DNA of 64,000 bases from Bacteroidota bacterium (GCA_049324055.1 JBMOLS010000007.1:32493-96492); one strand, 5' to 3'; positions 23,251-52,997 are shown, counted from the first letter of the stretch. Made by a program: numbers and translations. The notes: generated from the letters alone by a model not told the origin.

Positions 23251-23337
23251 GGAGAGGTGCCAGAGTGGCCGAATGGGACGGTCTCGAAAACCGTTATACG
23301 GGCAACTGTATCGAGGGTTCGAATCCCTCCCTCTCCG
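23251..23337 (+). tRNA. tRNA-Ser (anticodon CGA)
   Basis: The acceptor stem ggagagg pairs with cctctcc. The anticodon stem is acggt/accgt with loop cuCGAaa. There is a long variable arm, and the T-arm is gaggg-ttcgaat-ccctc. No encoded CCA. Confidence 0.93.
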
Positions 23338-23476
23338 CTCTATCGTCCAAAGCCCCGCATGATTGGGCGAAGAGGGTTCTTAGAAGTCATCTCAAAAGAT
23401 ACACCTCCTTGCCGAAGCGAAGTAGCAGGCAGGCACCGAGTGCCGGTATATCAATAGGTATGAATGAGCAGAAACC

Positions 23477-24277: not shown

Positions 24278-24739
24278 CTACACCACTTCTAATTCCTGCG
24301 GCAGCACCAATTGCACCGACTTTAACCACTCCGCTTCCAACAGATTTGCCCAGGTATGCATGTACTTCACCACATCAGCATTCACATTGTGTTTCAGGTT
24401 GCGTTCGCCCAAAGGTAAGCCGCGCAGCACCCTGGCATCCGACAGGCGTTCCAGGTGCTTGAGGTCATCGGCATCGAAACCAAAGGCAAGCAATTCAGAA
24501 ATCACATCATCCATCGGTAAGCCGCTGGTGGGGCAGTAGTCGTTAAGTTGCTCAGACCAATCGCCATGGCCCAGTAATGCTCTTCTGTGTATTTCGGCCT
24601 TCGTAAGTTGGGTTACCTGTTGCGCCAGGAAACCACAGTTGCAGGCACCCATGTGGCCCCACTGGTAGTCGTGGTTGTTGGCCAATTGTTTGGCGGCCTC
24701 GCGAATAGCATTAATGACCTCTGCTGAAACTTTTGCCAT
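24278..24739 (-). CDS. hypothetical protein (153 aa)
   Basis: Clean ORF with normal composition, but I recognise no motif. It is divergent from the M13-like gene, with 61 bp between the start codons. Confidence 0.5.
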   Translation of the reverse strand: MAKVSAEVINAIREAAKQLANNHDYQWGHMGACNCGFLAQQVTQLTKAEIHRRALLGHGDWSEQLNDYCPTSGLPMDDVISELLAFGFDADDLKHLERLSDARVLRGLPLGERNLKHNVNADVVKYMHTWANLLEAEWLKSVQLVLPQELEVV

Positions 24740-24782
24740 ACCGGTAATGTGTTTTCAAACTAATATAAATAACATTGAAGTT

Positions 24783-24790
24783 TATTTTTG
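24783..24790 (+). promoter_or_regulatory. Bacteroidota -7 promoter box (exact TAnnTTTG: tatttttg)
   Basis: An exact consensus match 11 nt before ATG 24801 and 47 nt before ATG 24837. Confidence 0.3.
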
Positions 24791-24800
24791 GTTCTTGAAA

Positions 24801-26690
24801 ATGTTTGGTGTGGAGCAACTTGATAACCGCCTGATAATGGCGCTGTTGTTGTTGGCAGGCGCCTGCGGATCACCTCCCCGGGAGGCAGCACCAGATGCAG
24901 TGCCTTCGGTTCTCAATCCCGACACCACAGTGCGGCCCGCAGCCGATTTTTACCGGTTTGCCAATCATTATTGGATGCAGACCGCACCGATTCCTGCCGG
25001 CTACCAGGCATGGACGATTTACCACGAACTGGAACACACCAACCGGCAGCAGTTGCTGGAAATTATGCAGCGTGTACCAGAAAATCCGCGTTACCCGGAA
25101 GGGTCGGGCATCCGCAAGGCATGGTACATGTTTCAAGTGGGGATGGATTCGGTGCGGGCAGAACGCCTGGGGTTGCGTCCCTTGCGGCCCCTGCTCAATG
25201 CCATTGCATCCATTCGAACCCCTGCCGATTTGTTGACTTACCTGAAAGAAGATTATTTCTGGGTGCCGCCCTTTTTTCAGTGCACACCTTCGGGTGATGG
25301 AAGAGCAACGTTGACCCCGGCTGGTCTGGGGTTGCCGGATCTGCAGGACTACCTGGCACTGGATGCGGAAGCCCGAAGCACACGGCAACAATACGTGGCG
25401 ATGATGGAACAGTTCTTCCGGCTCGCTGGTCAGTCGGAGAGTGCCGCGCAAGCAGATGCATGGGAAGTATGGGAAGTGGAATCTGCCTTAGCCAGGGCGT
25501 GGCTGCAGACGGACGATGTGCCACGCAGCTATTTTCGGTGGACCGAACTAGATCAGATTTCATCGGGCTTTTCGTGGTCGGCCTGGAAGGCAGCTACCAA
25601 CCTGCCTGCGGAGTGGGTGTTCACCTCGCGCGCAGAGATGGCCGCACTGGACAGAATTTTCGACCTGCCCCTGGACAGACTGAAGAGCTACCTGAAAGGA
25701 CAGTTGTTGCGCAAGGCCGCACCCTTTCTTACGGTCGGTTTTCAACAGGCTCACGCTGACTTTTATCCCACAAACCCCTTCGATGCTACGCGGATGCACC
25801 GCGTGTTGCGCGTGGTGAACGAAACATTTGCCGATGCCGTGGGCAGGGTATATGTGCAGCAATATGCTTCCAACGATGGCTTGCTGCAGGCGCAGGCGTT
25901 GGCCGCCAACATTCGCCTGGCCCTTGCCGACCGCATCAAAGCCTTGCCCATAGCCGACTCTTTGAAGGTGGAACCTTTGGCGAGATTGCAGGATCTGACA
26001 GTCCATGTCGGCTATCCGGACACGTGGAGGCGTTATACTGCCCTGGTGCACGAAAAAGACACCGCGCGTATTTCGTGGGTGGGTTATGTAATGCAGGCAA
26101 GAAAATTTCAATACCAGGAACTTTGGCGACCACCTATGCCTGGCGAGTGGAATACCCCCGCGCAGTCAACCCAACTGGTTTACGAGGAGGCCACTCACAC
26201 CCTCACCATCCCGGCCGGCTTTCTGCAACACCCGGTTTGGCATCAAAAAGCAGATGTGCCTGCCCAATATGGCTTATGTGGAACGGAGGTGGCCCGCGCT
26301 TTGGTGCCCCTTTTCCAGGGGGTTTTTCACCCGGTGCTGGCACCCTTTAGGCAGGCTATACAACGGGGACCTCGCGGGGCGGATGAACAGGAAAAAGCTG
26401 CCTTGTGGGAAACGGAAAGCGTGGCTTTGCACGTAGCGCTAGAAGCATGGAGACGGTACCAGCGCGAAAACCCCGCCTATCGAAGTACCTCCCGGTGGAC
26501 ACCCGAACAGCAGTTCTTCATCGCCTGGGCCGCGCTTTGGCGAACAAAACACCTTCAACCGCCTGACGAACACCTGTTTCAGGATTGGATGAAGCCTCTC
26601 TTTTATTGTGATTCTTTTTACGAGGCTTTTGCGGTGCAAACTACCGATGCTGCGTTTGTGGCTCCGCAGCAGCGCCTGGTCTTTTGGTGA
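24801..26690 (+). CDS. M13 (neprilysin/PepO) family homolog lacking the HExxH zinc motif, probable lipoprotein
   Basis: Lies in ORF 24675-26690. The start is moved to ATG 24801 (or 24837), which gives the lipobox LLLLAGAC. M13 landmarks are present: FYRFANHYW at the N-terminus, IPAGFLQHPVW, QQFFIAWAALW, and a C-terminal ...VFW. The position where xYGxxGxVIGHExxH is expected reads QYGLCGTEVARALVP (26265-26309). Confidence 0.75.
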   Translation: MFGVEQLDNRLIMALLLLAGACGSPPREAAPDAVPSVLNPDTTVRPAADFYRFANHYWMQTAPIPAGYQAWTIYHELEHTNRQQLLEIMQRVPENPRYPEGSGIRKAWYMFQVGMDSVRAERLGLRPLRPLLNAIASIRTPADLLTYLKEDYFWVPPFFQCTPSGDGRATLTPAGLGLPDLQDYLALDAEARSTRQQYVAMMEQFFRLAGQSESAAQADAWEVWEVESALARAWLQTDDVPRSYFRWTELDQISSGFSWSAWKAATNLPAEWVFTSRAEMAALDRIFDLPLDRLKSYLKGQLLRKAAPFLTVGFQQAHADFYPTNPFDATRMHRVLRVVNETFADAVGRVYVQQYASNDGLLQAQALAANIRLALADRIKALPIADSLKVEPLARLQDLTVHVGYPDTWRRYTALVHEKDTARISWVGYVMQARKFQYQELWRPPMPGEWNTPAQSTQLVYEEATHTLTIPAGFLQHPVWHQKADVPAQYGLCGTEVARALVPLFQGVFHPVLAPFRQAIQRGPRGADEQEKAALWETESVALHVALEAWRRYQRENPAYRSTSRWTPEQQFFIAWAALWRTKHLQPPDEHLFQDWMKPLFYCDSFYEAFAVQTTDAAFVAPQQRLVFW

Positions 26691-26767
26691 TATTTGATCA
26701 ATTAAAAAGCATTCATTTTGTTATTTTAACCGGGCTTGCTATTATTGCCCCACAATTTTTCAGCTAC

Positions 26768-26953: not shown

Positions 26954-26966
26954 TCATTTCGAATTA

Positions 26967-27038
26967 ATGAAGCACAACGTACATACTGCATGGTGGTGGC
27001 AAGGTTCTGAACCGAATCGGTGCCCGGCTGTGTTGTAA
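26967..27038 (+). CDS. trp operon leader peptide (23 codons, three consecutive Trp codons)
   Basis: The ORF reads atg aag cac aac gta cat act gca TGG TGG TGG caa ... taa, giving MKHNVHTAWWWQGSEPNRCPAVL*. It is too short for the supplied ORF track. It lies 92 nt upstream of trpE and directly upstream of an intrinsic terminator. Confidence 0.75.
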   Translation: MKHNVHTAWWWQGSEPNRCPAVL

Positions 27039-27077
27039 CGTTTGCTATTCACAATAGAGAAAGCCTGCTCCGATTCG
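27013..27077 (+). promoter_or_regulatory. candidate antiterminator helix of the trp attenuator
   Basis: 27013-27020 cgaatcgg pairs with 27070-27077 ccgattcg (8 bp). In addition 27022-23 pairs with 27067-68, and 27026-29 ggct pairs with 27062-65 agcc. This helix sequesters the whole 5' arm of the terminator. Confidence 0.55.
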
Positions 27078-27101
27078 ATCGGGGCAGGCTTTTGTTTTTT
27101 T
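27059..27101 (+). terminator. intrinsic terminator (trp attenuator; also the first terminator after the bTHX gene)
   Basis: A 14-15 bp GC-rich stem (27060-27074 with 27078-92, one G.U pair) is followed by ttttgttttttt. It ends 29 nt before the trpE ATG. Confidence 0.85.
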
Positions 27102-27129
27102 AATCGTTTGAATTGTTGAGAAACAGCGC

Positions 27130-28533
27130 ATGAAAAAATTTCAGATAACTACCACGCAGCGCAGCCTGCTGGCCGATACGCTCACACCAGTAAACATCTA
27201 CCTGAAGCTGCGCGATGTGTTTGCGGGCACCATCCTGCTGGAGAGTTCCGATTATCACGGCCATGAAAACAGCTTGTCGGTTATTGGCTGCGACCCGGTG
27301 GCCTCGTTCGTGGTGAAGAACGATGTATGCGAAATGGAATACCCCGATGGCACCACGCAAACCGCACAGGTGGGGCAGCCGGGCCAGTTTATTGGGTTAC
27401 TCGAGGCATTCCGCACGGCATTTCAACCCGACCGCACCGTGCAGCTGAAATACATGAACAGCGGGCTGTTTGGTTACATGGCGTACGATGCCATTCCCTT
27501 GTTCGAAGACATTTCTTTTGCCGATCGCGACAAACAGATACCCGATGTGGTGTACAAGTTCTACCGTTACATCATTGTGGTAGATCATTTTTCCAACGAG
27601 ATGGCGCTGTACGAGCATGCGGTAGCGGGTAGTAAGGGAGTGGGTCTGGCGCGGCTGGAGCAGATTATTTACAGTAACCGCTTCTCCACCTACCCGTTTG
27701 ACCGTACCGGCAAGGAACAATCTAATTTTACCGATGAAGAATTTTTGGAAATCATTGAAAAGGGAAAACAGCACTGCTACCGAGGCGATGTATTTCAGAT
27801 CGTATTGTCGCGCAGGTTTGAGTGCACGTTCCGGGGCGATGAGTTCAATGTGTACCGGGCGCTGCGCTCCATCAACCCATCTCCCTACCTTTTTTATTTC
27901 GACTATGGCAGCTTCAAGCTGATGGGCTCTTCGCCCGAGGCGCAGTTGCAGGTAAAGAACGGGTCGGCTTTCATTTATCCCATTGCCGGTACCTTTCGCA
28001 GGTCGGGCAACGATTTGGAAGACCAGGCATTGGCAGAGAAACTGATGGCCGATGAAAAAGAGAATGCAGAGCACGTGATGCTGGTAGACCTGGCCCGCAA
28101 CGACATGAGTCGCCATGCAGAGGCCGTAAAAGTGGAGGTGTTTAAAGAGATACAATTCTATTCGCACGTTATTCACCTGGTATCGAAGGTAAGTGGCCGC
28201 ATTCGCGAGGGCGCTTCGGTGGTGCACATGGCAGCCGACACGTTTCCGGCCGGCACGCTTTCGGGTGCACCCAAGCACAAAGCAATGACGTTGATCAACC
28301 GCTTCGAGAATGTAAATCGCGGCTACTACGGTGGTGCCATCGGCTTTCTGGGTTTCGATGGCTCTTTTAATCATGCCATCATGATCCGAACCTTCCTGAG
28401 TAAAGGCAACCGGCTGGTGTACCAGGCAGGTGCCGGTATTGTGGCGAAGTCGGCAGCGGAAAGTGAACTGAATGAAGTGAACAATAAACTGGCCGCGCTG
28501 CGCAAGTCGCTGGAGCTGGCCGAAAAACTATAA
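27130..28533 (+). CDS. trpE: anthranilate synthase component I
   Basis: 467 aa. LLESS near the N-terminus and chorismate-binding motifs (GAPKHKAMTLI, RGYYGGAIGF). Confidence 0.93.
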   Translation: MKKFQITTTQRSLLADTLTPVNIYLKLRDVFAGTILLESSDYHGHENSLSVIGCDPVASFVVKNDVCEMEYPDGTTQTAQVGQPGQFIGLLEAFRTAFQPDRTVQLKYMNSGLFGYMAYDAIPLFEDISFADRDKQIPDVVYKFYRYIIVVDHFSNEMALYEHAVAGSKGVGLARLEQIIYSNRFSTYPFDRTGKEQSNFTDEEFLEIIEKGKQHCYRGDVFQIVLSRRFECTFRGDEFNVYRALRSINPSPYLFYFDYGSFKLMGSSPEAQLQVKNGSAFIYPIAGTFRRSGNDLEDQALAEKLMADEKENAEHVMLVDLARNDMSRHAEAVKVEVFKEIQFYSHVIHLVSKVSGRIREGASVVHMAADTFPAGTLSGAPKHKAMTLINRFENVNRGYYGGAIGFLGFDGSFNHAIMIRTFLSKGNRLVYQAGAGIVAKSAAESELNEVNNKLAALRKSLELAEKL

Positions 28534-28542
28534 TGCAAGAAG

Positions 28543-29112
28543 ATGAAGATACTGGTATTAGATAACTACGATTCGTTTACCTACAACCTGGTGCACGTGG
28601 TGCGCGAACTGGGCTTTACGCCCGATGTGTACCGCAACGACAAGATTGCACTGGAGGCAGTGGCGCAGTACGATAAGATTTTGCTTTCCCCCGGCCCGGG
28701 CATTCCCGATGAGGCGGGAATCATGAAAGAGGTGATACGAACGTATGGGCTGAGCAAAAGCATTCTGGGTATTTGCCTGGGGCATCAGGGCCTGGCCGAA
28801 GTGTACGGGGCATCGCTCTTTAACATTCCCAACGTGTTGCATGGCGTTACGTCTCCTGTTACGGTGCTCGACAACGAGGAGCTATTATTTCGCGGGGTAG
28901 CCCAACCGTTTCAGGCCACGCATTACCATTCGTGGGCAGTGAGGCCAGACAGCATTACACCCGAATTGATCGTGACGGCCACGAATCCAGAAGGGCTGAT
29001 TATGGGGTTGCGCCACCGTCAGCACGATGTGCGCGGGCTCCAGTTTCACCCCGAGTCTATCATGACAACCGAGGGCCCCAAAATGATCGGCAATTGGTTA
29101 GGAAAACAATAA
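28543..29112 (+). CDS. trpG: anthranilate synthase component II (glutamine amidotransferase)
   Basis: 189 aa. LDNYDSFTYNL, GICLGHQ (catalytic Cys) and FHPES. Confidence 0.9.
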   Translation: MKILVLDNYDSFTYNLVHVVRELGFTPDVYRNDKIALEAVAQYDKILLSPGPGIPDEAGIMKEVIRTYGLSKSILGICLGHQGLAEVYGASLFNIPNVLHGVTSPVTVLDNEELLFRGVAQPFQATHYHSWAVRPDSITPELIVTATNPEGLIMGLRHRQHDVRGLQFHPESIMTTEGPKMIGNWLGKQ

Positions 29113-29155
29113 GGAGGGGAGGAACGAGAATTCAAAAAATCGGAGGAACCAGACC

Positions 29156-30139
29156 ATGAAGGAAATACTCAACGAACTAATCAACCACCAGTCGCTGAAC
29201 AAAGAAGCGGCCCGGCAGGTTTTGGTGGACATTGCTTCTGCCAAGTACAATGCCAGCCAGGTGTCGGCTTTCATGACCGTGTACATGATGCGTACCGTTA
29301 CGGTGGATGAATTGCAGGGCTTCCGCGATGCCATGTTGGAGTTGTGCGTGCCCGCGCGCTTCGATGCACCAGTGATGGATGTATGCGGCACCGGGGGTGA
29401 TGGCAAGAATACCTTTAACATCTCTACGCTCTCGTCTTTTGTGGTGGCCGCTGCCGGGCAGCCGGTAGCCAAACATGGCAACTATGGGGTTTCGTCCATC
29501 AGCGGGTCGAGCAATATCCTCGAGTATTTCAAATACCCTTTCACCAACCAGGTAGACGACTTAAAAAGGAGTCTGGACAGGGCGAACATCTGTTTCATGC
29601 ATGCGCCCTTGTTTCACCCGGCCATGAAAAACGTGGCGCCCATCCGCAAGGAGCTGGGCGTAAAAACATTTTTTAACATGTTGGGGCCCATGGTGAATCC
29701 CGCCTTTCCAACGCGGCAACTGGTGGGCGTTTTCAGCCTGGAGCTGGCCCGGCAGTATGGCTACCTCTATCAACAAACCGAAAAAAATTACCTGATACTG
29801 CACGCCATCGATGGCTATGATGAAGTGTCGCTGACGGGTGCGGTAAAATACTACGCGAACCAGGGCGAATACCTGGTAGAGCCCAAAGACATGGGGTTGC
29901 GTAAATGGCGGTCGGATGATATCCGCGGAGGAACTACCGTGGAGGAATCGGCCAGGATTTTTCTCTCCATTCTGGAGGGCAAGGGCACCGAAGCGCAAAA
30001 CCAGGTGGTGGCGGCCAATGCCGGCATGGCTTTGCACGCGGCCAATCTCAACCTGAATATTGCCGAGGCGGTGGCAATGGCGTTGGAGGTTTTATTAAGG
30101 GGCGATGCCTATCAGGCATTTAAAAGATTAATGCAATGA
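29156..30139 (+). CDS. trpD: anthranilate phosphoribosyltransferase
   Basis: 327 aa. CGTGGDGKNTFNIST and KHGN motifs. Confidence 0.92.
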   Translation: MKEILNELINHQSLNKEAARQVLVDIASAKYNASQVSAFMTVYMMRTVTVDELQGFRDAMLELCVPARFDAPVMDVCGTGGDGKNTFNISTLSSFVVAAAGQPVAKHGNYGVSSISGSSNILEYFKYPFTNQVDDLKRSLDRANICFMHAPLFHPAMKNVAPIRKELGVKTFFNMLGPMVNPAFPTRQLVGVFSLELARQYGYLYQQTEKNYLILHAIDGYDEVSLTGAVKYYANQGEYLVEPKDMGLRKWRSDDIRGGTTVEESARIFLSILEGKGTEAQNQVVAANAGMALHAANLNLNIAEAVAMALEVLLRGDAYQAFKRLMQ

Positions 30140-30948
30140 CGAAGACCATGAACATACTCGATGAAATTGTGCTGCACAAACAGCGGGAGGTAGCCGAACG
30201 GAAACAACAACGTCCGCTGTCGCAATTGGAAGACAGCCCTTACTTTAAACGCGAGCCTTATTCTTTGCGCCACTTTTTGGTACGTGCCGACAAAACTGGC
30301 ATCATTGCCGAGTTTAAACGCAAATCACCTTCCAGGGGAGTAATCAATGGATCGGCCTCGGTAGCGCAAGTGGTGGCAGGTTATACCGCTGCCGGTGCGT
30401 CAGCCATTTCGGTTTTGTCTGATCATACTTTTTTTGGAGGAAGCACGGAAGACGTAATGATGGCCAGACTGGCAACCAATTGCCCGATTTTGCGGAAAGA
30501 TTTTGTGATAGACGAGTATCAGGTAGTGGAGGCGAAATCCATGGGTGCCGATGTTATTCTTTTGATAGCGGCCATTCTAACGCCTGCGCAGGCAACACAG
30601 TTGGCCCAGGTTGCACATGGGCTGGGTATGGAGGTTTTGCTGGAAGTACACAATGAAGAAGAGTTGCAGTTGCACCAACACATAGGTGCCGATGTGATCG
30701 GGGTAAACAACCGGAACCTGAAAACGTTCGAAGTGGACGTAGCGACTTCGCTCCGGCTGGCGCAATTGATTCCGCAGGAAATAATAAAAGTATCGGAGAG
30801 CGGACTTAGCGAACCCGAAACGGTTGTTAAGCTGCGGTCGGCCGGCTATCGCGGGTTTTTAATGGGAGAGAACTTTATGAAGCATGCGCACCCCGAGCAG
30901 GCTGCCCAGGCATTCATGGACGCCTTGCGAAAGTTAAGTAAGAAATGA
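30136..30948 (+). CDS. trpC: indole-3-glycerol-phosphate synthase
   Basis: 270 aa. IAEFKRKSPS, KDF and INNRNL-type motifs. Overlaps the trpD stop by 4 nt. Confidence 0.92.
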   Translation: MTKTMNILDEIVLHKQREVAERKQQRPLSQLEDSPYFKREPYSLRHFLVRADKTGIIAEFKRKSPSRGVINGSASVAQVVAGYTAAGASAISVLSDHTFFGGSTEDVMMARLATNCPILRKDFVIDEYQVVEAKSMGADVILLIAAILTPAQATQLAQVAHGLGMEVLLEVHNEEELQLHQHIGADVIGVNNRNLKTFEVDVATSLRLAQLIPQEIIKVSESGLSEPETVVKLRSAGYRGFLMGENFMKHAHPEQAAQAFMDALRKLSKK

Positions 30949-31589
30949 TGCGCGATCGGAAAGTAAAATTAAAAGTCTGTGGCATGAAGTTCCACGAGAA
31001 CATCCAAAGCATCAGCGAGGTGCAACCGGACTACATGGGCTTTATCTTTTACCCAATGTCGCCCCGCTTTGTGGGCGAGGCTTTCAGCGCTCCCAATATA
31101 TCGCCCCACATCCAAATGGTAGGTGTTTTCGTGAATGAAGAAGAAGAGAACATTCTCCGCAAGAGCAGGCTGCTCGGGTCGGATGTCGTTCAACTGCATG
31201 GGCAGGAGAGCGCCACGCTCTGTGGCCGGCTGCAGGAGCAGGGGAAGACAGTGATCAAGGCCTTTGCCATGCACCCTCACTTTGACTTCGAGCTGTTAAC
31301 ACCCTACGAGCACGTGGTAGATTACTTTCTGTTTGATACAAAAGGCAAACAGCCTGGTGGAAACGCTTTTTCATTCGATTGGTCCTTACTGAAGCAATAC
31401 CACCAGCGCATTCCTTTTTTTCTCAGTGGGGGATTAAACAAACACAACATCGCACAATTAAATGAAGTACTTTCGATGAACCTGCACGCACTCGACATCA
31501 ACAGTGGGGCAGAAGTGTCAGCGGGATTGAAAGATAAAAGTGAAGTGGCGGCAATCAAGAGATGGTTAGATGATTTGAACAACAGTTAA
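30945..31589 (+). CDS. trpF: phosphoribosylanthranilate isomerase
   Basis: 214 aa. KVCGM near the N-terminus, VQLHG, and DINSGAE at the C-terminus. Overlaps the trpC stop by 4 nt. Confidence 0.9.
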
Positions 31590-31599
31590 AACAGAGGTT

Positions 31600-32784
31600 A
31601 TGCAAAAATACCAGGTGAACGAAGAAGGGTACTATGGCGATTTTGGCGGTGCCTACATTCCGGAAATGTTGTATCCCAATGTAGAAGAGCTGCGCACAAA
31701 CTACCTGCAGTGGATGCAACAGGAAGATTTTCGAAAAGAGTTCGATGCTTTGCTGCGCGATTACGTGGGCAGGCCCACTCCGCTGTTCAAGGCAGAACGA
31801 CTATCGGACAAGTATAAAAGCAACATCTACCTGAAGCGTGAGGACCTCTGCCACACGGGAGCGCACAAAATCAACAACACCATTGGTCAGATCTTGCTGG
31901 CCAAGCGCCTCGGGAAGAAGAAAATCATTGCCGAGACAGGCGCAGGCCAGCATGGTGTGGCAACGGCTACGGTTTGTGCGCTCATGGGCATTGAATGCAC
32001 TGTTTACATGGGTGAACTGGACATGCAAAGGCAGCGGCCCAACGTGGAGCGCATGCGCATACTGGGGGCAAAGGTAATCCCCGCGCTGAGCGGCAACAAA
32101 ACACTGAAAGATGCCACCAACGAGGCCATGCGTCACTGGATCAACAACCCTACCGACACGCACTACATCATTGGTTCGGTAGTGGGGCCACATCCTTACC
32201 CCGATATGGTGGCGCGTTTCCAGTCGGTGATCAGCGAGGAAATCAAAGCGCAGCTTACGGAACTGCTCGGTCACCCTTATCCGGATTACGTGGTGGCGTG
32301 TGTGGGGGGCGGCAGCAATGCAGCGGGCGCTTTTTATCATTTTTTGAACGATGAGCACGTGCAACTGGTAGGGGCCGAAGCGGCCGGAAAAGGCGTAGAC
32401 TCGGGCGAGTCGGCTGCCACCACGGCCTTGGGTAAGCCGGGTGTGCTGCACGGCAGCAAAACGTTGCTGATGCAAACGGAAGACGGGCAAGTGATTGAAC
32501 CCTATTCTATTTCTGCCGGCCTCGACTACCCCGGCATCGGGCCGTTGCACGCACACCTGTTTACGGAAGGGCGGGTGCAGTTCCTCAGCGCTACCGATGA
32601 AGAAGCCATGCAGGCGGGCATCGAACTGAGTCGGCTTGAAGGCATTATACCTGCCATCGAGTCGGCACATGCACTGGCCGTGCTGCCTCAGTTGCCGTTG
32701 CAAAGCGAAGACGTGGTGGTCATCAATTTATCGGGCCGTGGCGATAAGGATTTAGAGACGTATATTCGGTGGGGTAAATACTAA
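31600..32784 (+). CDS. trpB: tryptophan synthase beta chain
   Basis: 394 aa. The PLP-lysine motif is HTGAHKINN, followed by GGGSNA. Confidence 0.95.
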
Positions 32785-32788
32785 TGTT

Positions 32789-33715
32789 ATGAAGCAAGTC
32801 TTTTGGAAGTGGCATGGTTTCAGCGTTGCAGCCGTTGGCTGTGCTTTCGTTGTTTTGCTGTCGTGTGCGCAACGCGAAGAAAAGCTAAGTGAGGCAGCAC
32901 ATCAACAAGAAGTCGATGCGTGGTTCGAGGATCGGATCCGCAACTTAAAAGATACCACCGGCTGGCTGAACCTGGTGGGCCTTTACTGGTTGCAGGAAGG
33001 CATTAACACCTTCGGCAGCGCTGCAACCAATCAGGTAGTTTTTCCTGCGGGCACCATCGCGGCCGATGCAGGTTATTTTTTGGTAAAGAACGGAGTAGTA
33101 ACCATGAATGTGAACACGGGAGTGCCAATCACCTCCCGGGGTGCGGCCGTTACATCAATGGTGGTATTTCACCCCGACTCTGCACGGTTGCCGCGCGTGG
33201 AGCACGGTTCGCTGCAGTGGTTCATCATCCAACGCGACAACCAGGTGGGCGTACGCCTGCGCGATTTACACAGTGCCGCAGTGTCTCGGTTCAAAGGCAT
33301 TGAAAGATATCCGGTGGATTTGCAGTGGAGGGTAGAAGCCTCCTTCGAACCCACCGAAGGCAAGACCATTGACATCACCAACGTATTAGGCCAAACCGTA
33401 CCCACGCCATCGCCCGGTGTTCTCACGTTTCAAATAGACGGAAAGAAATATTCGATTGACGCATTGGAGGGTGGCGATGAGCTCTTCCTCATTTTCGCTG
33501 ACGATACCAATGGAAAAGAAACCTACCCGGCCGGGAGGTATTTGTATGTGAAGAAGCCCGGAGCAGACAATAAGGTGGTCATCGACTTTAACAAGGCCTA
33601 CAACCCGCCCTGTGCCTTTACGCCCTTTGCCACGTGCCCGCTTCCGCCCCGGCAAAATGTATTGGCACTGGCTGTTACGGCCGGTGAAAAAAATTACGAA
33701 GGAAACAAGCACTAA
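32789..33715 (+). CDS. DUF1684 domain lipoprotein, embedded between trpB and trpA
   Basis: 308 aa. Signal with lipobox (VVLLSC). The C-terminal DFNKAYNPPCAFTPFATCPLPPRQN...AGEKNY is the DUF1684 signature. It starts 4 nt after trpB and ends 22 nt before trpA. Confidence 0.75.
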   Translation: MKQVFWKWHGFSVAAVGCAFVVLLSCAQREEKLSEAAHQQEVDAWFEDRIRNLKDTTGWLNLVGLYWLQEGINTFGSAATNQVVFPAGTIAADAGYFLVKNGVVTMNVNTGVPITSRGAAVTSMVVFHPDSARLPRVEHGSLQWFIIQRDNQVGVRLRDLHSAAVSRFKGIERYPVDLQWRVEASFEPTEGKTIDITNVLGQTVPTPSPGVLTFQIDGKKYSIDALEGGDELFLIFADDTNGKETYPAGRYLYVKKPGADNKVVIDFNKAYNPPCAFTPFATCPLPPRQNVLALAVTAGEKNYEGNKH

Positions 33716-33737
33716 GTGTTGCCAACATTGCCTACGC

Positions 33738-34523
33738 ATGAATCGACTTCAAAATCTCTTCAAGAAAAAAAACACAAACCTTTTATCGGTTTTTTATACG
33801 GCCGGTTATCCCAACCTGAATGACACGGTGCCCATAGGGGTGGCGTTGCAGAAAGCCGGTGCCGATCTGATTGAAATAGGCATACCCTTTTCCGACCCGG
33901 TGGCCGATGGCCCCACCATTCAGGAAAGCAACAAGGTAGCCATCGACAACGGTATTCACGTAAAACGCATCTTGCAACAAGTGCAGGAGCTGCGGCAGCA
34001 GGTGCAGATGCCCATTATTTTGATGGGCTACTTGAACCCGGTGTTGCAGTACGGAATGGAGCAATTCTGTGCGGATGCGTCCGCGGCTGGTGCCGATGGT
34101 TGTATTTTTCCCGACATGCCGTGGCACGATTACGAAAAACAGTACAAAACGCTGTTTCAAAAATCGGGCTTGTCGCATATTTTTTTGATAGCGCCAACCA
34201 CGGCTGCCGCGCGCATCGAGCGCATCGATGCCGCCACCGATAGCTTTATCTATGCTGTATCCGCTTCGAGCACTACCGGCACACGGGGTAGCTTTACCCC
34301 CGAGCAACTGACTTACTTTCAGCGACTAAAGGAGGCCCAACTCAAGAACCCGTTTCTGGTGGGCTTTGGGGTTGCCAACCACGAAACGTTTCGCACAGCC
34401 TGCAGGTATGGTGCCGGGGCCATTGTGGGGAGCGCTTTCATCCAATTGTTAAAATCGAAAGGAGGGGATGAGGCGGCCATTGCAGCTTTTGTGGCCGAAA
34501 TGAAAGGAGCCGCGCCCGAATAA
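33738..34523 (+). CDS. trpA: tryptophan synthase alpha chain
   Basis: Lies in ORF 33612-34523. The start is moved to MNRLQNLF (ATG 33738). Motifs are IEIGIPFSDPVADGPTIQ and GFGV. Confidence 0.9.
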   Translation: MNRLQNLFKKKNTNLLSVFYTAGYPNLNDTVPIGVALQKAGADLIEIGIPFSDPVADGPTIQESNKVAIDNGIHVKRILQQVQELRQQVQMPIILMGYLNPVLQYGMEQFCADASAAGADGCIFPDMPWHDYEKQYKTLFQKSGLSHIFLIAPTTAAARIERIDAATDSFIYAVSASSTTGTRGSFTPEQLTYFQRLKEAQLKNPFLVGFGVANHETFRTACRYGAGAIVGSAFIQLLKSKGGDEAAIAAFVAEMKGAAPE

Positions 34524-50700: not shown

Positions 50701-52997
50701 TTGGAGATGGGCACCGCCAGGTTATTGCGGGGTCCCAATTTCATATAACCCTCTCCGTTTTGCTGGATGGACTGATCGTGGTCGGAACCAATGCTGGAGA
50801 ACACAGGGTTGCCGATGCCATTGGGTGTGATGCGGTAGGCCCGGAACGTATTGTTGCCGTATTCATGTGCGATGAGGAACTGCCCGTTGGCTGTAATCCG
50901 TTCGGTACTTTTGGCGAACAAGCCGATGTTTTGCTGTGTAACGGCACCCAACCCGTTGTTCAACTTCAGATCGAACAGCGAGTATTTCATAATCAAGGAA
51001 TCGGTACCGTTGATGGCCTGGGTGGTGAAGATGTAATACAGCGTTTCATCGCCCGGTACGGGCACAATCAATGCCGACTGGGTGGAGGCAGGGTTCCCCC
51101 CAATGTTGCTGGCAATCAGGTTATGATCGCGGTCGAAGACAGCGTTGCCATCGGTATAAAAAATCGTTTCGCCATTCCGGTCGCACACAATCGAGCAACC
51201 TTCCGGGGCATCCATCACACTCTCGTTCAGGGCGGTGGGCGGTTGTGTGTTGAAATCAATACCCGCCCGGTTGCCGAAATACCATTTATTAAATATCTGG
51301 TCTTGCAACCCATACTCACGCACGTTCACGCCCGCATAGGCCGAGCAGCCCGTTGCATCGGTTACCACCACATAATAATAACCGGCCGAGTCAGGTGTAA
51401 GCACCGGCCCCAGGTCTCCGTTCGACCACACAATGGAAGTGGCCGTGCCACCCGATATGTTGGCCGTAACCTGAAACTGGCTGGGAGACGAAGAGCCGCG
51501 TGGAGGGGGGAACTCACTGCGGCATGCCGTGGTATCCTGCGTCATTTGTATCTGCAGGGCAAACGCATTGATTGTAACCGGCTGCGAGGTGCTCTGACTT
51601 TGTCCGCGATAGAAGGCCGTGAGGTTTACGTTAAATGTGCCGGCCGTAGCATACGTGTGTACCGGGCTGGGCCCTGCGCCAAAACTGCTGTCGCCAAAAT
51701 CCCACACTAAACTGTCTGCGCCAGGTCTTACCGTGGCAAAGAAGGTGGTGGGTGCGTTTTGGCACGTACCTGCAAACGTAAAGTCCACCGTTAGCTGTAT
51801 GGAGTCTTTGGGAGCAAATTGCGGAAATTGCGTACCCACCCAATTTGCGGAGCCCAGCGGAGCGGGTTCATACTGCACCCGCGCAGCAACGCTATCGGGG
51901 TGGGCTATTCTTCCCAACAGGAAAGGGCCGCCCGATGCAGCCTGGTACAGGTGGTAAATGGTGCTGTCGGGTGCCATCTGCAAACCAAAACTCCGGTGAA
52001 TAGCGGTCGGTATTACCGGAGCCAAAGTAACAGCCGCATTTAGGTAGTCGTATTGCAAAACCATGGCGGTAACGCCTGCATCGCCATGGCGCGATAAATA
52101 CAAATACCTGCCGTTATTACTCCACTCAATGTCGTAAATCGATTGGTTGTTGGCTGCGGGTGTGGCCGAGTTCAGGATGGTGCGGTCGAAGGTAAGAACT
52201 CCCGAGGCGTTGTTGAAGTTCAGGATGATGGCATCGGTGTCTGCATCTTGTGGGGCCACGGCTATTTTTTGTGTGGCCGGGTGGTAGCCCAGGTGGGCCG
52301 CGGCCGTGGGCAGGGCCGCAGCTCCCGATGTAATGGTGTTGAACGTGCCAGTGTAGGCGGCCGCATTGATGAGCGTGGCAGTAAAGGTTTGTGTATTCAC
52401 CTGCTGCGTAATCAGCCAGAAGTCAATTTGGTTGTCGTGCGGCACCACCACCATGCCCTCGGCCCGTTGGGTCAGGCCGGGAATGGCGGTATTTTTCGAC
52501 TCTACATCGCCTGCGGCAGGAGCCGGGAAGGCCGCGTTGCCAAATAAGCCCATGTCAACAATTGTGTAAGAGATGGCCCCGTCCACACCATTCATAAAAT
52601 CAGCGCTGTTGGTGAAGACAAAGTATTTGCCAGCCTGGCCGGGTACGGGGCAAATGGCCACGGGTTGATTGGCGGAAGCAAATCCATTCAGGCCGCCCCC
52701 GTTGGGCATGGGCAGGTGGTTTCGGTCGTAAACCTGGGTGCCATCGGTGTAAAACAGCAGGTTGCCGTTGGCTGGATCGGTAGCCACCGCACTGCCACCG
52801 CTGCCGAAGGGAACGGCTTTGTTGGTGATGAGCGATGCCGTTCGATCCACGCGGTTAAACCGGATGCCGTTGGCAGAGTTGCCATACAACCAGTTGTGTT
52901 GTTCCAGGGTTTGCGTCCGTGCTGGCAAGGCCAGGCATGCCATCAGGCCAACCATCCAAACTGTTCCTACAACTGTTCTTGCTCCAATCCTTCTCAT
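47778..52997 (-). CDS. large T9SS-secreted surface protein with type-B (gliding-motility-associated) C-terminal domain, PKD and Ig-like repeats
   Basis: Lies in ORF 47778-53102. The start is moved to MRRIGARTVVGTVWMVGLMACLALPARTQ. Two PKD-like domains are present (one with WDFGDS...HTY...G.F.V.L). The C-terminal ~90 aa (PNAFRPT...NKNFRVF...IYNRWGELVF...WNG...GTYSYVI) is the CHU_C/type-B CTD signature. Confidence 0.88.
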   Translation of the reverse strand: MRRIGARTVVGTVWMVGLMACLALPARTQTLEQHNWLYGNSANGIRFNRVDRTASLITNKAVPFGSGGSAVATDPANGNLLFYTDGTQVYDRNHLPMPNGGGLNGFASANQPVAICPVPGQAGKYFVFTNSADFMNGVDGAISYTIVDMGLFGNAAFPAPAAGDVESKNTAIPGLTQRAEGMVVVPHDNQIDFWLITQQVNTQTFTATLINAAAYTGTFNTITSGAAALPTAAAHLGYHPATQKIAVAPQDADTDAIILNFNNASGVLTFDRTILNSATPAANNQSIYDIEWSNNGRYLYLSRHGDAGVTAMVLQYDYLNAAVTLAPVIPTAIHRSFGLQMAPDSTIYHLYQAASGGPFLLGRIAHPDSVAARVQYEPAPLGSANWVGTQFPQFAPKDSIQLTVDFTFAGTCQNAPTTFFATVRPGADSLVWDFGDSSFGAGPSPVHTYATAGTFNVNLTAFYRGQSQSTSQPVTINAFALQIQMTQDTTACRSEFPPPRGSSSPSQFQVTANISGGTATSIVWSNGDLGPVLTPDSAGYYYVVVTDATGCSAYAGVNVREYGLQDQIFNKWYFGNRAGIDFNTQPPTALNESVMDAPEGCSIVCDRNGETIFYTDGNAVFDRDHNLIASNIGGNPASTQSALIVPVPGDETLYYIFTTQAINGTDSLIMKYSLFDLKLNNGLGAVTQQNIGLFAKSTERITANGQFLIAHEYGNNTFRAYRITPNGIGNPVFSSIGSDHDQSIQQNGEGYMKLGPRNNLAVPISNPGVSNRVELFTLDTAGHVTNLRNIDLNEPNGQIYGVEFSPAGNKLFATVKVSSGSSHLFEYFLDSLNRPFFKQKLSPAAELGAVQVAPNGQIYVAVNNAASSGSLGTIQANEDTTQLSVFTLNGFQLASGTNSRLGLPNFIQINSNALGGPSITVDGVCLGDSTRFSGSSRDQIDEFNWSVFQGSTLITQSTDASFNFLFAAPGNYSVTLRLHNRCAPDTTLRENFTIFNRPNAPNGAAVLCTGPATLDANPTNQPGLTYFWSTQETTQTIVVNEQALITVTVTDANGCVDDGQFLVAENRPIVDLGPDITVCEDNNTPALNAQNPGATYAWTINGTAAGNSQALAVDTNTPGVFTYAVRVTDPITTCFVDDSKTYTVNVSPNFTFTGTDPTSCGTPTGSVQLQLNASTPAGGPLYQYFISGAGTSQADIDQAAPTTITVPNLVAGTYSVIVTDQISGCTLSQSIGINDISLTITPTISGINCDPVDYSIAVTGGVSPYSFTITNSSTGLVADTSPTAVASPYITQNGLTAGSYVIEVVDVNGCLDTEPLTVTPDAPVPVTLTPNLCDLEIVATGASTYSWSSTPASAITGATNQATVRLTAGVGQATFTVTATAPGSCPATQTIDLNVGNLTTPVLTQSNECASSVLVSAAPAGSFTYRWFVNGAATPDLTLAGSQQLVDITQSGIRYEVAIFDPQSGCTTSRSNQLQVSVIGPVDASLTSTPPCQDEQPFTLTAATTATGVNYAWTLNGTTLTGVNTATTDQTAEGTYRVTVSKASCNASASLLITRQPLPVGSLPNRVVICNDPDNVDPDTRSVDLDPGTFTSYAWFKNELTLNYTQQVLTADSEGLYEVELTNEFACVATDETEVLNECLPKINAPNAFRPTSAQEANKNFRVFTFFITDENFNVFIYNRWGELVFTAANRDFTWNGGYNNNPAQPLPPGTYSYVIQYVSSFRPDKGVQEKRGGVALLR

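Follow-up and report, generated by a model that had tools for sequence, protein, structure and literature searches.

Leader-peptide attenuation is a textbook mechanism that has been shown mainly in Proteobacteria and Actinobacteria. In this work, we analyzed a 64,000-nt stretch of DNA from a Bacteroidota bacterium (GCA_049324055.1 JBMOLS010000007.1:32493-96492; called the window in the following) and describe an element that lies between the gene for the 30S ribosomal protein bTHX and the tryptophan biosynthesis gene trpE. Judging from its sequence and from that of its relatives, we take this element to be an unannotated ribosome-mediated trp attenuator with the classical four-region design, a reading to which we assign a probability of roughly 0.85.

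Within the phylum, the closest described system is the Bacteroid-trp leader (RF01692), an in silico description by Weinberg et al. from 2010 in which peptide-leader attenuation was already proposed and which comprised 'a loosely conserved hairpin', without an antiterminator (PMC2864571). A first-pass annotation of the window had pointed to such a 'Bacteroid-trp' motif for Bacteroidota, and correctly so. The trpE leader of the window resembles it in several respects. It comes from the same phylum, lies upstream of trpE and contains a short open reading frame (ORF) with at least two UGG codons, and a hairpin that includes these Trp codons leads into the beginning of a terminator; the model helix of RF01692 likewise spans the UGG codons. 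In contrast, the clade of the window carries the bTHX gene at the place where elsewhere a promoter adjoins the leader.

The covariance scan with the Bacteroid-trp model that the first-pass annotation had proposed did not recover the element: no match was found in the window at the gathering threshold of 49 bits, nor at E <= 10 on leader stretches of 351 and 136 nt. Also the Trp_leader model (RF00513) gave no match, either at gathering in the whole window or at E <= 10 on the leader stretches. What the E-value mode returned on the 351 and 136 nt were weak, terminator-driven matches, for example, to Thr_leader with 16 bits and to the rnk leader with 21 bits, and none of them came near its threshold. 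Among 40 related loci that were scanned, RF01692 reached its gathering threshold in 16, with 50-72 bits, all of them labelled Flavobacteriaceae or Flavobacteriia, and it matched none of the Cytophagales, Sphingobacteriales and Chitinophagaceae loci in this set. The window copy hence has the descriptive features of Bacteroid-trp but stays below the model threshold. Presumably, the original seed of RF01692 includes sequences of Algoriphagus (Cytophagales) and Pedobacter, as the accession prefixes suggest; if so, the Bacteroid-trp family as conceived covers this lineage.

Like the E. coli trp leader (trpL, RF00513), the window element has a hairpin 1:2 that takes in the Trp codons, and it pairs regions 2 and 3 into an antiterminator and regions 3 and 4 into a terminator with a U tract. 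Both carry tandem Trp codons in a short ORF, and in both the terminator is placed just before trpE. There is, however, no detectable sequence or model similarity between the two. The window has three Trp codons where E. coli has two, and its stop codon lies 3' of region 2, whereas the E. coli stop lies between regions 1 and 2. Furthermore, the window leader is the second cistron after bTHX, while the E. coli leader comes first after a promoter under TrpR control. In Sinorhizobium meliloti, trpL (rnTrpL) is likewise a ribosome-dependent attenuator upstream of trpE(G), and its terminated product is a discrete small RNA (PMC6614838). In the window, by contrast, termination would produce a bicistronic bTHX-trpL mRNA rather than a free attenuator RNA. 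The literature that we searched held no experimental study of trp attenuation in Bacteroidota.

Leader ORF and alternative RNA structures

Table 1. Location of the proposed attenuator, its parts and the adjoining genes in the window
Feature	Position	Strand	Basis
trpL-like leader ORF, 23 codons, MKHNVHTAWWWQGSEPNRCPAVL followed by stop	26967..27038	+	ORF reading; homologous short ORFs in 144/148 loci
TGG TGG TGG, proposed sensing site	26991..26999	+	sequence; TGGTGGTGGCA invariant in the 17 closest leaders
Region 2, antiterminator 5' strand	27013..27029	+	begins 13 nt past the last Trp codon
Region 3, terminator 5' arm and loop, partner of region 2	27062..27077	+	antiterminator fold
Intrinsic terminator (attenuator)	27059..27101	+	16-bp stem 27059-27093, 3-nt loop, T tract to 27101
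Hairpin 1:2 (anti-antiterminator, possibly pause hairpin)	26971..27046	+	-31.4 kcal/mol, z = -3.1
30S ribosomal protein bTHX gene, 61 aa	26768..26953	+	TIGR04560 ribo_THX, 44.1 bits vs cut-off 26
Bacteroidota-type promoter candidate before bTHX	26717..26747	+	TTTG 26717-26720, 19-nt spacer, TATTATTG 26740-26747
Operon trpE-trpG-trpD-trpC-trpF-trpB-DUF1684-trpA	27130..34523	+	Pfam; TrpE also NCBIfam

The leader ORF was found just as the first-pass annotation had read it, with its start codon, its three consecutive TGG codons and its TAA stop at 27036-27038 (Table 1). The spacer between this stop and the trpE ATG at 27130 is 91 nt long. No NCBIfam model exists for the leader peptide. Two related leaders (L007 and L085) have 18 codons and end with a TGA within region 2 (CGATCGG-TGA), and in many leaders the stop TGA lies inside this region. 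The window ORF continues to its TAA: here the TGA has become TGC (27021-27023), which adds five codons compared with L007 and L085 and leaves the RNA helices intact.

To place the element in its phylum, relatives were collected via TrpE, which yielded 80 genome loci and 80 metagenome loci. The closest TrpE relatives share 60-73% identity, and the best of them (71-73%) are all from Bacteroidota and mostly metagenome-assembled genomes (MAGs) labelled Cytophagales or Cyclobacteriaceae. ATG-to-stop ORFs of 8-45 codons with a W-x(0-1)-W run were then looked for in the 148 loci whose sequence upstream of trpE comprised 300 nt or more. Such an ORF was present in 144 of them; 129 contained WW and 98 contained WWW. 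On the reverse complement of the same 148 regions, the corresponding counts were 2, 1 and 0. From this it follows that the leader ORF does not occur by chance, and the short ORF with tandem TGG codons, whose conservation in orthologous leaders had been suggested as a check, is indeed kept across Bacteroidota. Independently of the flanking sequence, the Trp codons invariably share the frame of a short ORF that runs over 14-33 codons from its ATG to its stop. The residues around the Trp run are somewhat conserved, with N, H, T or A before and H, N or R after it.

Between leader ORF and trpE, the G+C-rich hairpin with a T tract that the first-pass annotation had described was confirmed, with a stem of 16 bp and the tail GTTTTTTTAA. 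Its fold has -26.4 kcal/mol (z = -5.7), and none of 200 shuffled sequences folded as well. Moreover, 27059-27093 is the strongest terminator-like hairpin on both strands of the 64-kb window. The T tract ends 28 nt before the trpE ATG. A terminator between leader and trpE was present in all 74 sequences compared, namely the window and those 73 genome loci in which a leader could be detected. A sigma-70 promoter scan is uninformative for this phylum and was replaced by a search for TAnnTTTG (-7 box) and TTTG (-33 element). Between terminator and trpE, a perfect -7 box TAnnTTTG occurred in a single one of the 74 sequences (L007) and not in the window. Transcription of trpE thus has to cross the terminator.

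The exceptional L007 locus (around 2450-2490) and also L085 (around 1305-1500) carry palindromic repeats (CCCCTCTCC...GGAGAGGGG) between attenuator terminator and trpE. In L007, these repeats precede the sole perfect -7 box downstream of an attenuator, which could be a secondary promoter that was brought by the repeat insertion or selected after it.

Region 2 lies within the leader ORF and is complementary to the 5' arm and loop of the terminator, so that antiterminator and terminator are mutually exclusive. The core of the antiterminator consists of CGAATCGG (27013-27020) and its exact reverse complement CCGATTCG (27070-27077). Two short helices (27022-23 with 27067-68 and 27026-29 with 27062-65) extend the pairing, in line with the complementarity that had been noticed before. 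The duplex of region 2 with the terminator arm has -21.7 kcal/mol, compared with a mean of -10.3 kcal/mol for dinucleotide shuffles of the upstream strand (z = -5.0, 0/200). As a whole, the antiterminator fold has -21.9 kcal/mol (z = -2.8).

In the 74 sequences, the antiterminator was better than dinucleotide shuffles at p <= 0.05 in 45% and at p <= 0.01 in 22%. A swap test was clearer about co-variation: region 2 and its cognate terminator 5' arm paired with -12.2 kcal/mol, non-cognate combinations with -9.1 kcal/mol (Wilcoxon p = 1.7e-8). In a control with the terminator 3' arm, cognate pairs had no advantage. The 17 closest leaders fall into two types. Type A (the window, L005-7, L081, L085-87 and L090) has GCTCCGATnC in the terminator apex and (C)GATCGG in region 2. 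Type B (L001-4, L082, L083, L088 and L115) has the apex GCTGTTCAC and GTGA(A/G)CAGC in region 2 (GTGAACAGC). Within the types, region 2 and terminator pair with -15.6 and -13.7 kcal/mol, across types with -11.2 and -9.6 kcal/mol. Co-variation of the antiterminator thus rests on cognate versus non-cognate and cross-sub-clade energies, i.e., on a comparison between clades. A single compensatory change is seen between the window and L006 (CGAATCGG/CCGATTCG versus TGAATCGG/CCGATTCA), where a C-G pair becomes U-A at a position of the terminator loop. The alignment of the nine type-A leaders is 90.8% paired in the terminator, with five compensatory pairs, and 76.9% paired in the antiterminator, compared with 21-52% when slid. 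Compensatory changes, which the first-pass annotation had proposed to look for, are seen in both helices, in the antiterminator of this alignment with a single pair.

Hairpin 1:2, to which the first-pass annotation made no reference, pairs the Trp codons (region 1) with 27019-27035. In nine relatives, its core helix is 75% paired with four compensatory pairs, and the whole hairpin is 66% paired compared with 33-44% when slid. As it includes the Trp codons and its 3' strand overlaps region 2, the full 1:2, 2:3 and 3:4 layout is present. In all 17 closest leaders, region 2 begins 13-21 nt past the last Trp codon, just outside a stalled ribosome.

Folding under ribosome masks fits this layout. 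The naked RNA forms hairpin 1:2 and the terminator (-58.1 kcal/mol). If the second Trp codon is masked by a ribosome and the transcript stops at 27077 or 27085, the 2:3 antiterminator has the lowest energy of all structures, whereas with a mask at the stop codon the terminator forms, both as had been anticipated. From these observations, the following course of events may be proposed. RNA polymerase would transcribe the 23-codon leader with its three consecutive Trp codons. If charged tRNA-Trp is scarce, the ribosome would stall at 26991-26999 and open hairpin 1:2, leaving region 2 free to pair with 27062-27077 once this segment has been made. The terminator would then not form, and transcription would read through into trpEGDCFB-DUF1684-trpA. 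If Trp is plentiful, the ribosome would cross region 2 and reach the stop at 27036; the 27059-27093 hairpin and its T tract would form, and transcription would end 28 nt before trpE. A leader that is not translated would likewise end in termination, with hairpin 1:2 sequestering region 2.

Some of the results weigh against this scheme. In the complete transcript, the terminator wins even with a ribosome mask on the Trp codons, and at full length it is favored over the antiterminator by about 4.5 kcal/mol. The switch therefore must be kinetic, and we assume, by analogy to E. coli, that the decision is made in this way. When a ribosome has reached the stop codon, with its A site at 27036, the core 27013-27020 coincides with the rear edge of its footprint or lies just behind it. 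Occlusion of the core depends on ribosome transit together with refolding of hairpin 1:2. Finally, the antiterminator core is conserved in the nine closest leaders, with one compensatory pair, and shuffle controls were not exceeded there; covariation within the clade is weak because the core is conserved. Taken together, ribosome-mediated attenuation is computationally well supported, and we infer a response to Trp from it. Apart from the Rfam model, every computational test that the first-pass annotation had proposed turned out in its favor.

Promoter of the leader and competing explanations

In the window, the leader appears to come second, after bTHX, rather than to stand first behind a promoter of its own. 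The bTHX gene, which has a weak Pfam Thx match in addition to its NCBIfam assignment and was also absent from the first-pass annotation, stops 13 nt short of the leader ATG. Each of the 17 members of this Cytophagales clade has bTHX directly upstream of the leader, with gaps of -1 to 20 nt between bTHX stop and leader ATG and with some TAATG or TAAATG junctions. All 17 also share a TAnnnTTG box 26-37 nt ahead of the bTHX start codon, combined in 16 with a -33 TTG or TTTG at the expected distance; in the window, a generic promoter scan also marks 26718-26745. No conserved promoter box was found inside bTHX or before the leader in these 17 members with the TAnnTTTG/TTTG-type search. The attenuation geometry of the first-pass annotation therefore stands with one amendment: as the leader abuts bTHX, the terminator would also end the bTHX transcript.

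Outside the clade, the arrangement is different. Here, 53 of 66 loci (from L008-L080) have a perfect TAnnTTTG just upstream of the leader, with its end 4-50 nt away from the ATG, mostly 4-20 nt and most commonly 5-10 nt, exactly where the clade has its bTHX stop. The leader ORF may thus be on a leaderless or nearly leaderless mRNA in these organisms, which would permit prompt translation without a Shine-Dalgarno sequence. From the comparison, we infer that in the clade the end of the bTHX gene has taken the place of the leader's own promoter. We somewhat favor the view that the clade leader lacks a promoter of its own, is co-transcribed from the bTHX promoter, probably translationally coupled, and shares its terminator with bTHX. 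Transcription would then start at the bTHX promoter (-7 box 26740-26747), and the leader would be translated by ribosomes that have just finished bTHX. The trp operon would be expressed only by read-through of the shared bTHX and attenuator terminator. Whether the trp operon of this uncultured Cytophagales lineage has itself lost its own promoter, with transcription starting at bTHX, re-initiation on trpL and the attenuator serving as the bTHX terminator, seems to us an even chance.

A bTHX relative with another architecture was seen in a Roseivirgaceae MAG (L015, 1721 to about 2321). Here, a bTHX-like N-terminus is fused to a lysine- and alanine-rich tail of about 170 aa. The fusion ends about 40 nt before the trp leader, and the leader ATG follows a near-consensus -7 box at a distance of 7 nt.

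Alternatively, attenuation could work as described, but from an own weak promoter in the 3' part of bTHX. Adjacency of the two genes would then be a matter of genome compaction, bTHX transcripts would contribute little, and trpL would be initiated independently. The window has TACAGTTG 66 nt before the leader ATG, which matches a -7 box at five of six positions and speaks against transcription from the bTHX promoter alone, as a weak promoter may reside within the bTHX coding region; in Bacteroidota, a promoter may function even if its -33 element is poor. Nevertheless, we consider an own promoter of this kind the less likely of the two. No such box is conserved in the clade, in which the TAnnnTTG before bTHX is invariably kept, and the boxes of the 53 leaders outside the clade occupy the very position of the bTHX stop. 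In addition, short gaps and TAATG or TAAATG junctions are typical of co-translated cistrons.

A functional leader peptide, acting by TnaC-like nascent arrest or in trans like Sinorhizobium peTrpL, could be added to codon sensing or even replace it. Some conservation of the residues that flank the Trp run would agree with this, and the account in PMC7298713 documents trans functions of peTrpL in alpha-proteobacteria. However, RNA pairing explains the flanking conservation, since GCAUGGUGGUGGCA pairs with region 2 in hairpin 1:2. Peptide length and C-terminus vary freely, as the five additional codons in the window illustrate, and induction by Trp of the TnaC type would have the wrong sign for a biosynthetic operon. 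We thus regard a function of the peptide itself as improbable.

Hardly any more probable, and if anything slightly less so, is a trans-factor that reads the leader RNA, i.e., a TRAP-like protein, uncharged tRNA-Trp as in a T-box, or a Trp riboswitch. Structured leaders with terminator and antiterminator alternatives are common to all these mechanisms, and UGG could in principle act as a specifier-like element. Yet no T-box or riboswitch model of Rfam matched, neither with a gathering score nor, on the leader, with E <= 10, and 26954-27059 contains one GAG and one TAG, compared with the 9-11 (G/U)AG repeats of a TRAP site. Furthermore, the strict frame of the Trp codons within a short ATG-to-stop ORF and the distance of region 2, just beyond a ribosome stalled on the Trp run, point to a translating ribosome instead. 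Finally, comparison nearly excludes that 27059-27101 is a mere bTHX terminator followed by a separate trpE promoter, with the WWW ORF being accidental or non-functional: although the hairpin lies 105 nt past the bTHX stop and would end bTHX transcripts anyway, and although a degenerate box ATCGTTTG is found at 27103-27110, the 28 nt between T tract and trpE hold no -7 box that has a -33 element at the right distance, a perfect box past the terminator is confined to one of 74 sequences, leader ORF and terminator are kept in about 140 loci without an upstream bTHX, and WWW ORFs were missing from the reverse-complement control.

Operon context and meaning for Bacteroidota

In the trp operon of the window, a DUF1684 gene (PF07920, E = 9e-47; 32789-33715, + strand) is inserted between trpB (31600-32784) and trpA (about 33700-34523). 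On its other side, bTHX is preceded by an M13 peptidase gene (24675-26690). The only gathering-level Rfam match in the whole window is a tRNA-Ser (anticodon CGA) with a long variable arm (23251-23338, + strand). In three relatives, a Bacteroidales-type small signal recognition particle (SRP) RNA (RF04183, 73-80 bits) was found 0.8-1.7 kb upstream of trpE (L004 1110-1212, L006 1563-1665, L011 777-881; - strand); it was not found in the window. One other candidate for a leader-peptide attenuator in the window, MAMQALPPWFCNTTT at 52087 on the - strand, lies inside an ORF of 1774 aa and was rejected as a chance occurrence.

For Bacteroidota, attenuation of trp genes has so far rested on the computational motif of 2010, the Rfam model of which reached only Flavobacteriaceae-labelled loci in our sample. 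An attenuator of this kind had thus already been proposed in silico, which limits the surprise, and the practical value is modest: trp regulation could be annotated better, and the covariance model could be broadened. Among the sampled loci, which span Cytophagales, Sphingobacteriales, Chitinophagales and Flavobacteriales, nearly every trpE is preceded by the element. What is added is evidence for the antiterminator, which is missing from the published description, and a clade variant in which the attenuator is fused behind the ribosomal protein gene bTHX.

To our knowledge, translation initiation in Bacteroidota is not based on Shine-Dalgarno sequences. It is therefore a real question how the leader is translated promptly enough to steer RNA polymerase. 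Two testable answers emerge: in most lineages, a -7 box at 4-10 nt from the leader start codon, and the bTHX stop at the same place in the clade of the window. If this reading of the bTHX arrangement is true, transcription-translation coupling in the clade would come from the upstream cistron and not from a Shine-Dalgarno site, and attenuation of a ribosomal protein transcript that is linked to growth rate would be the only gate on Trp biosynthesis.

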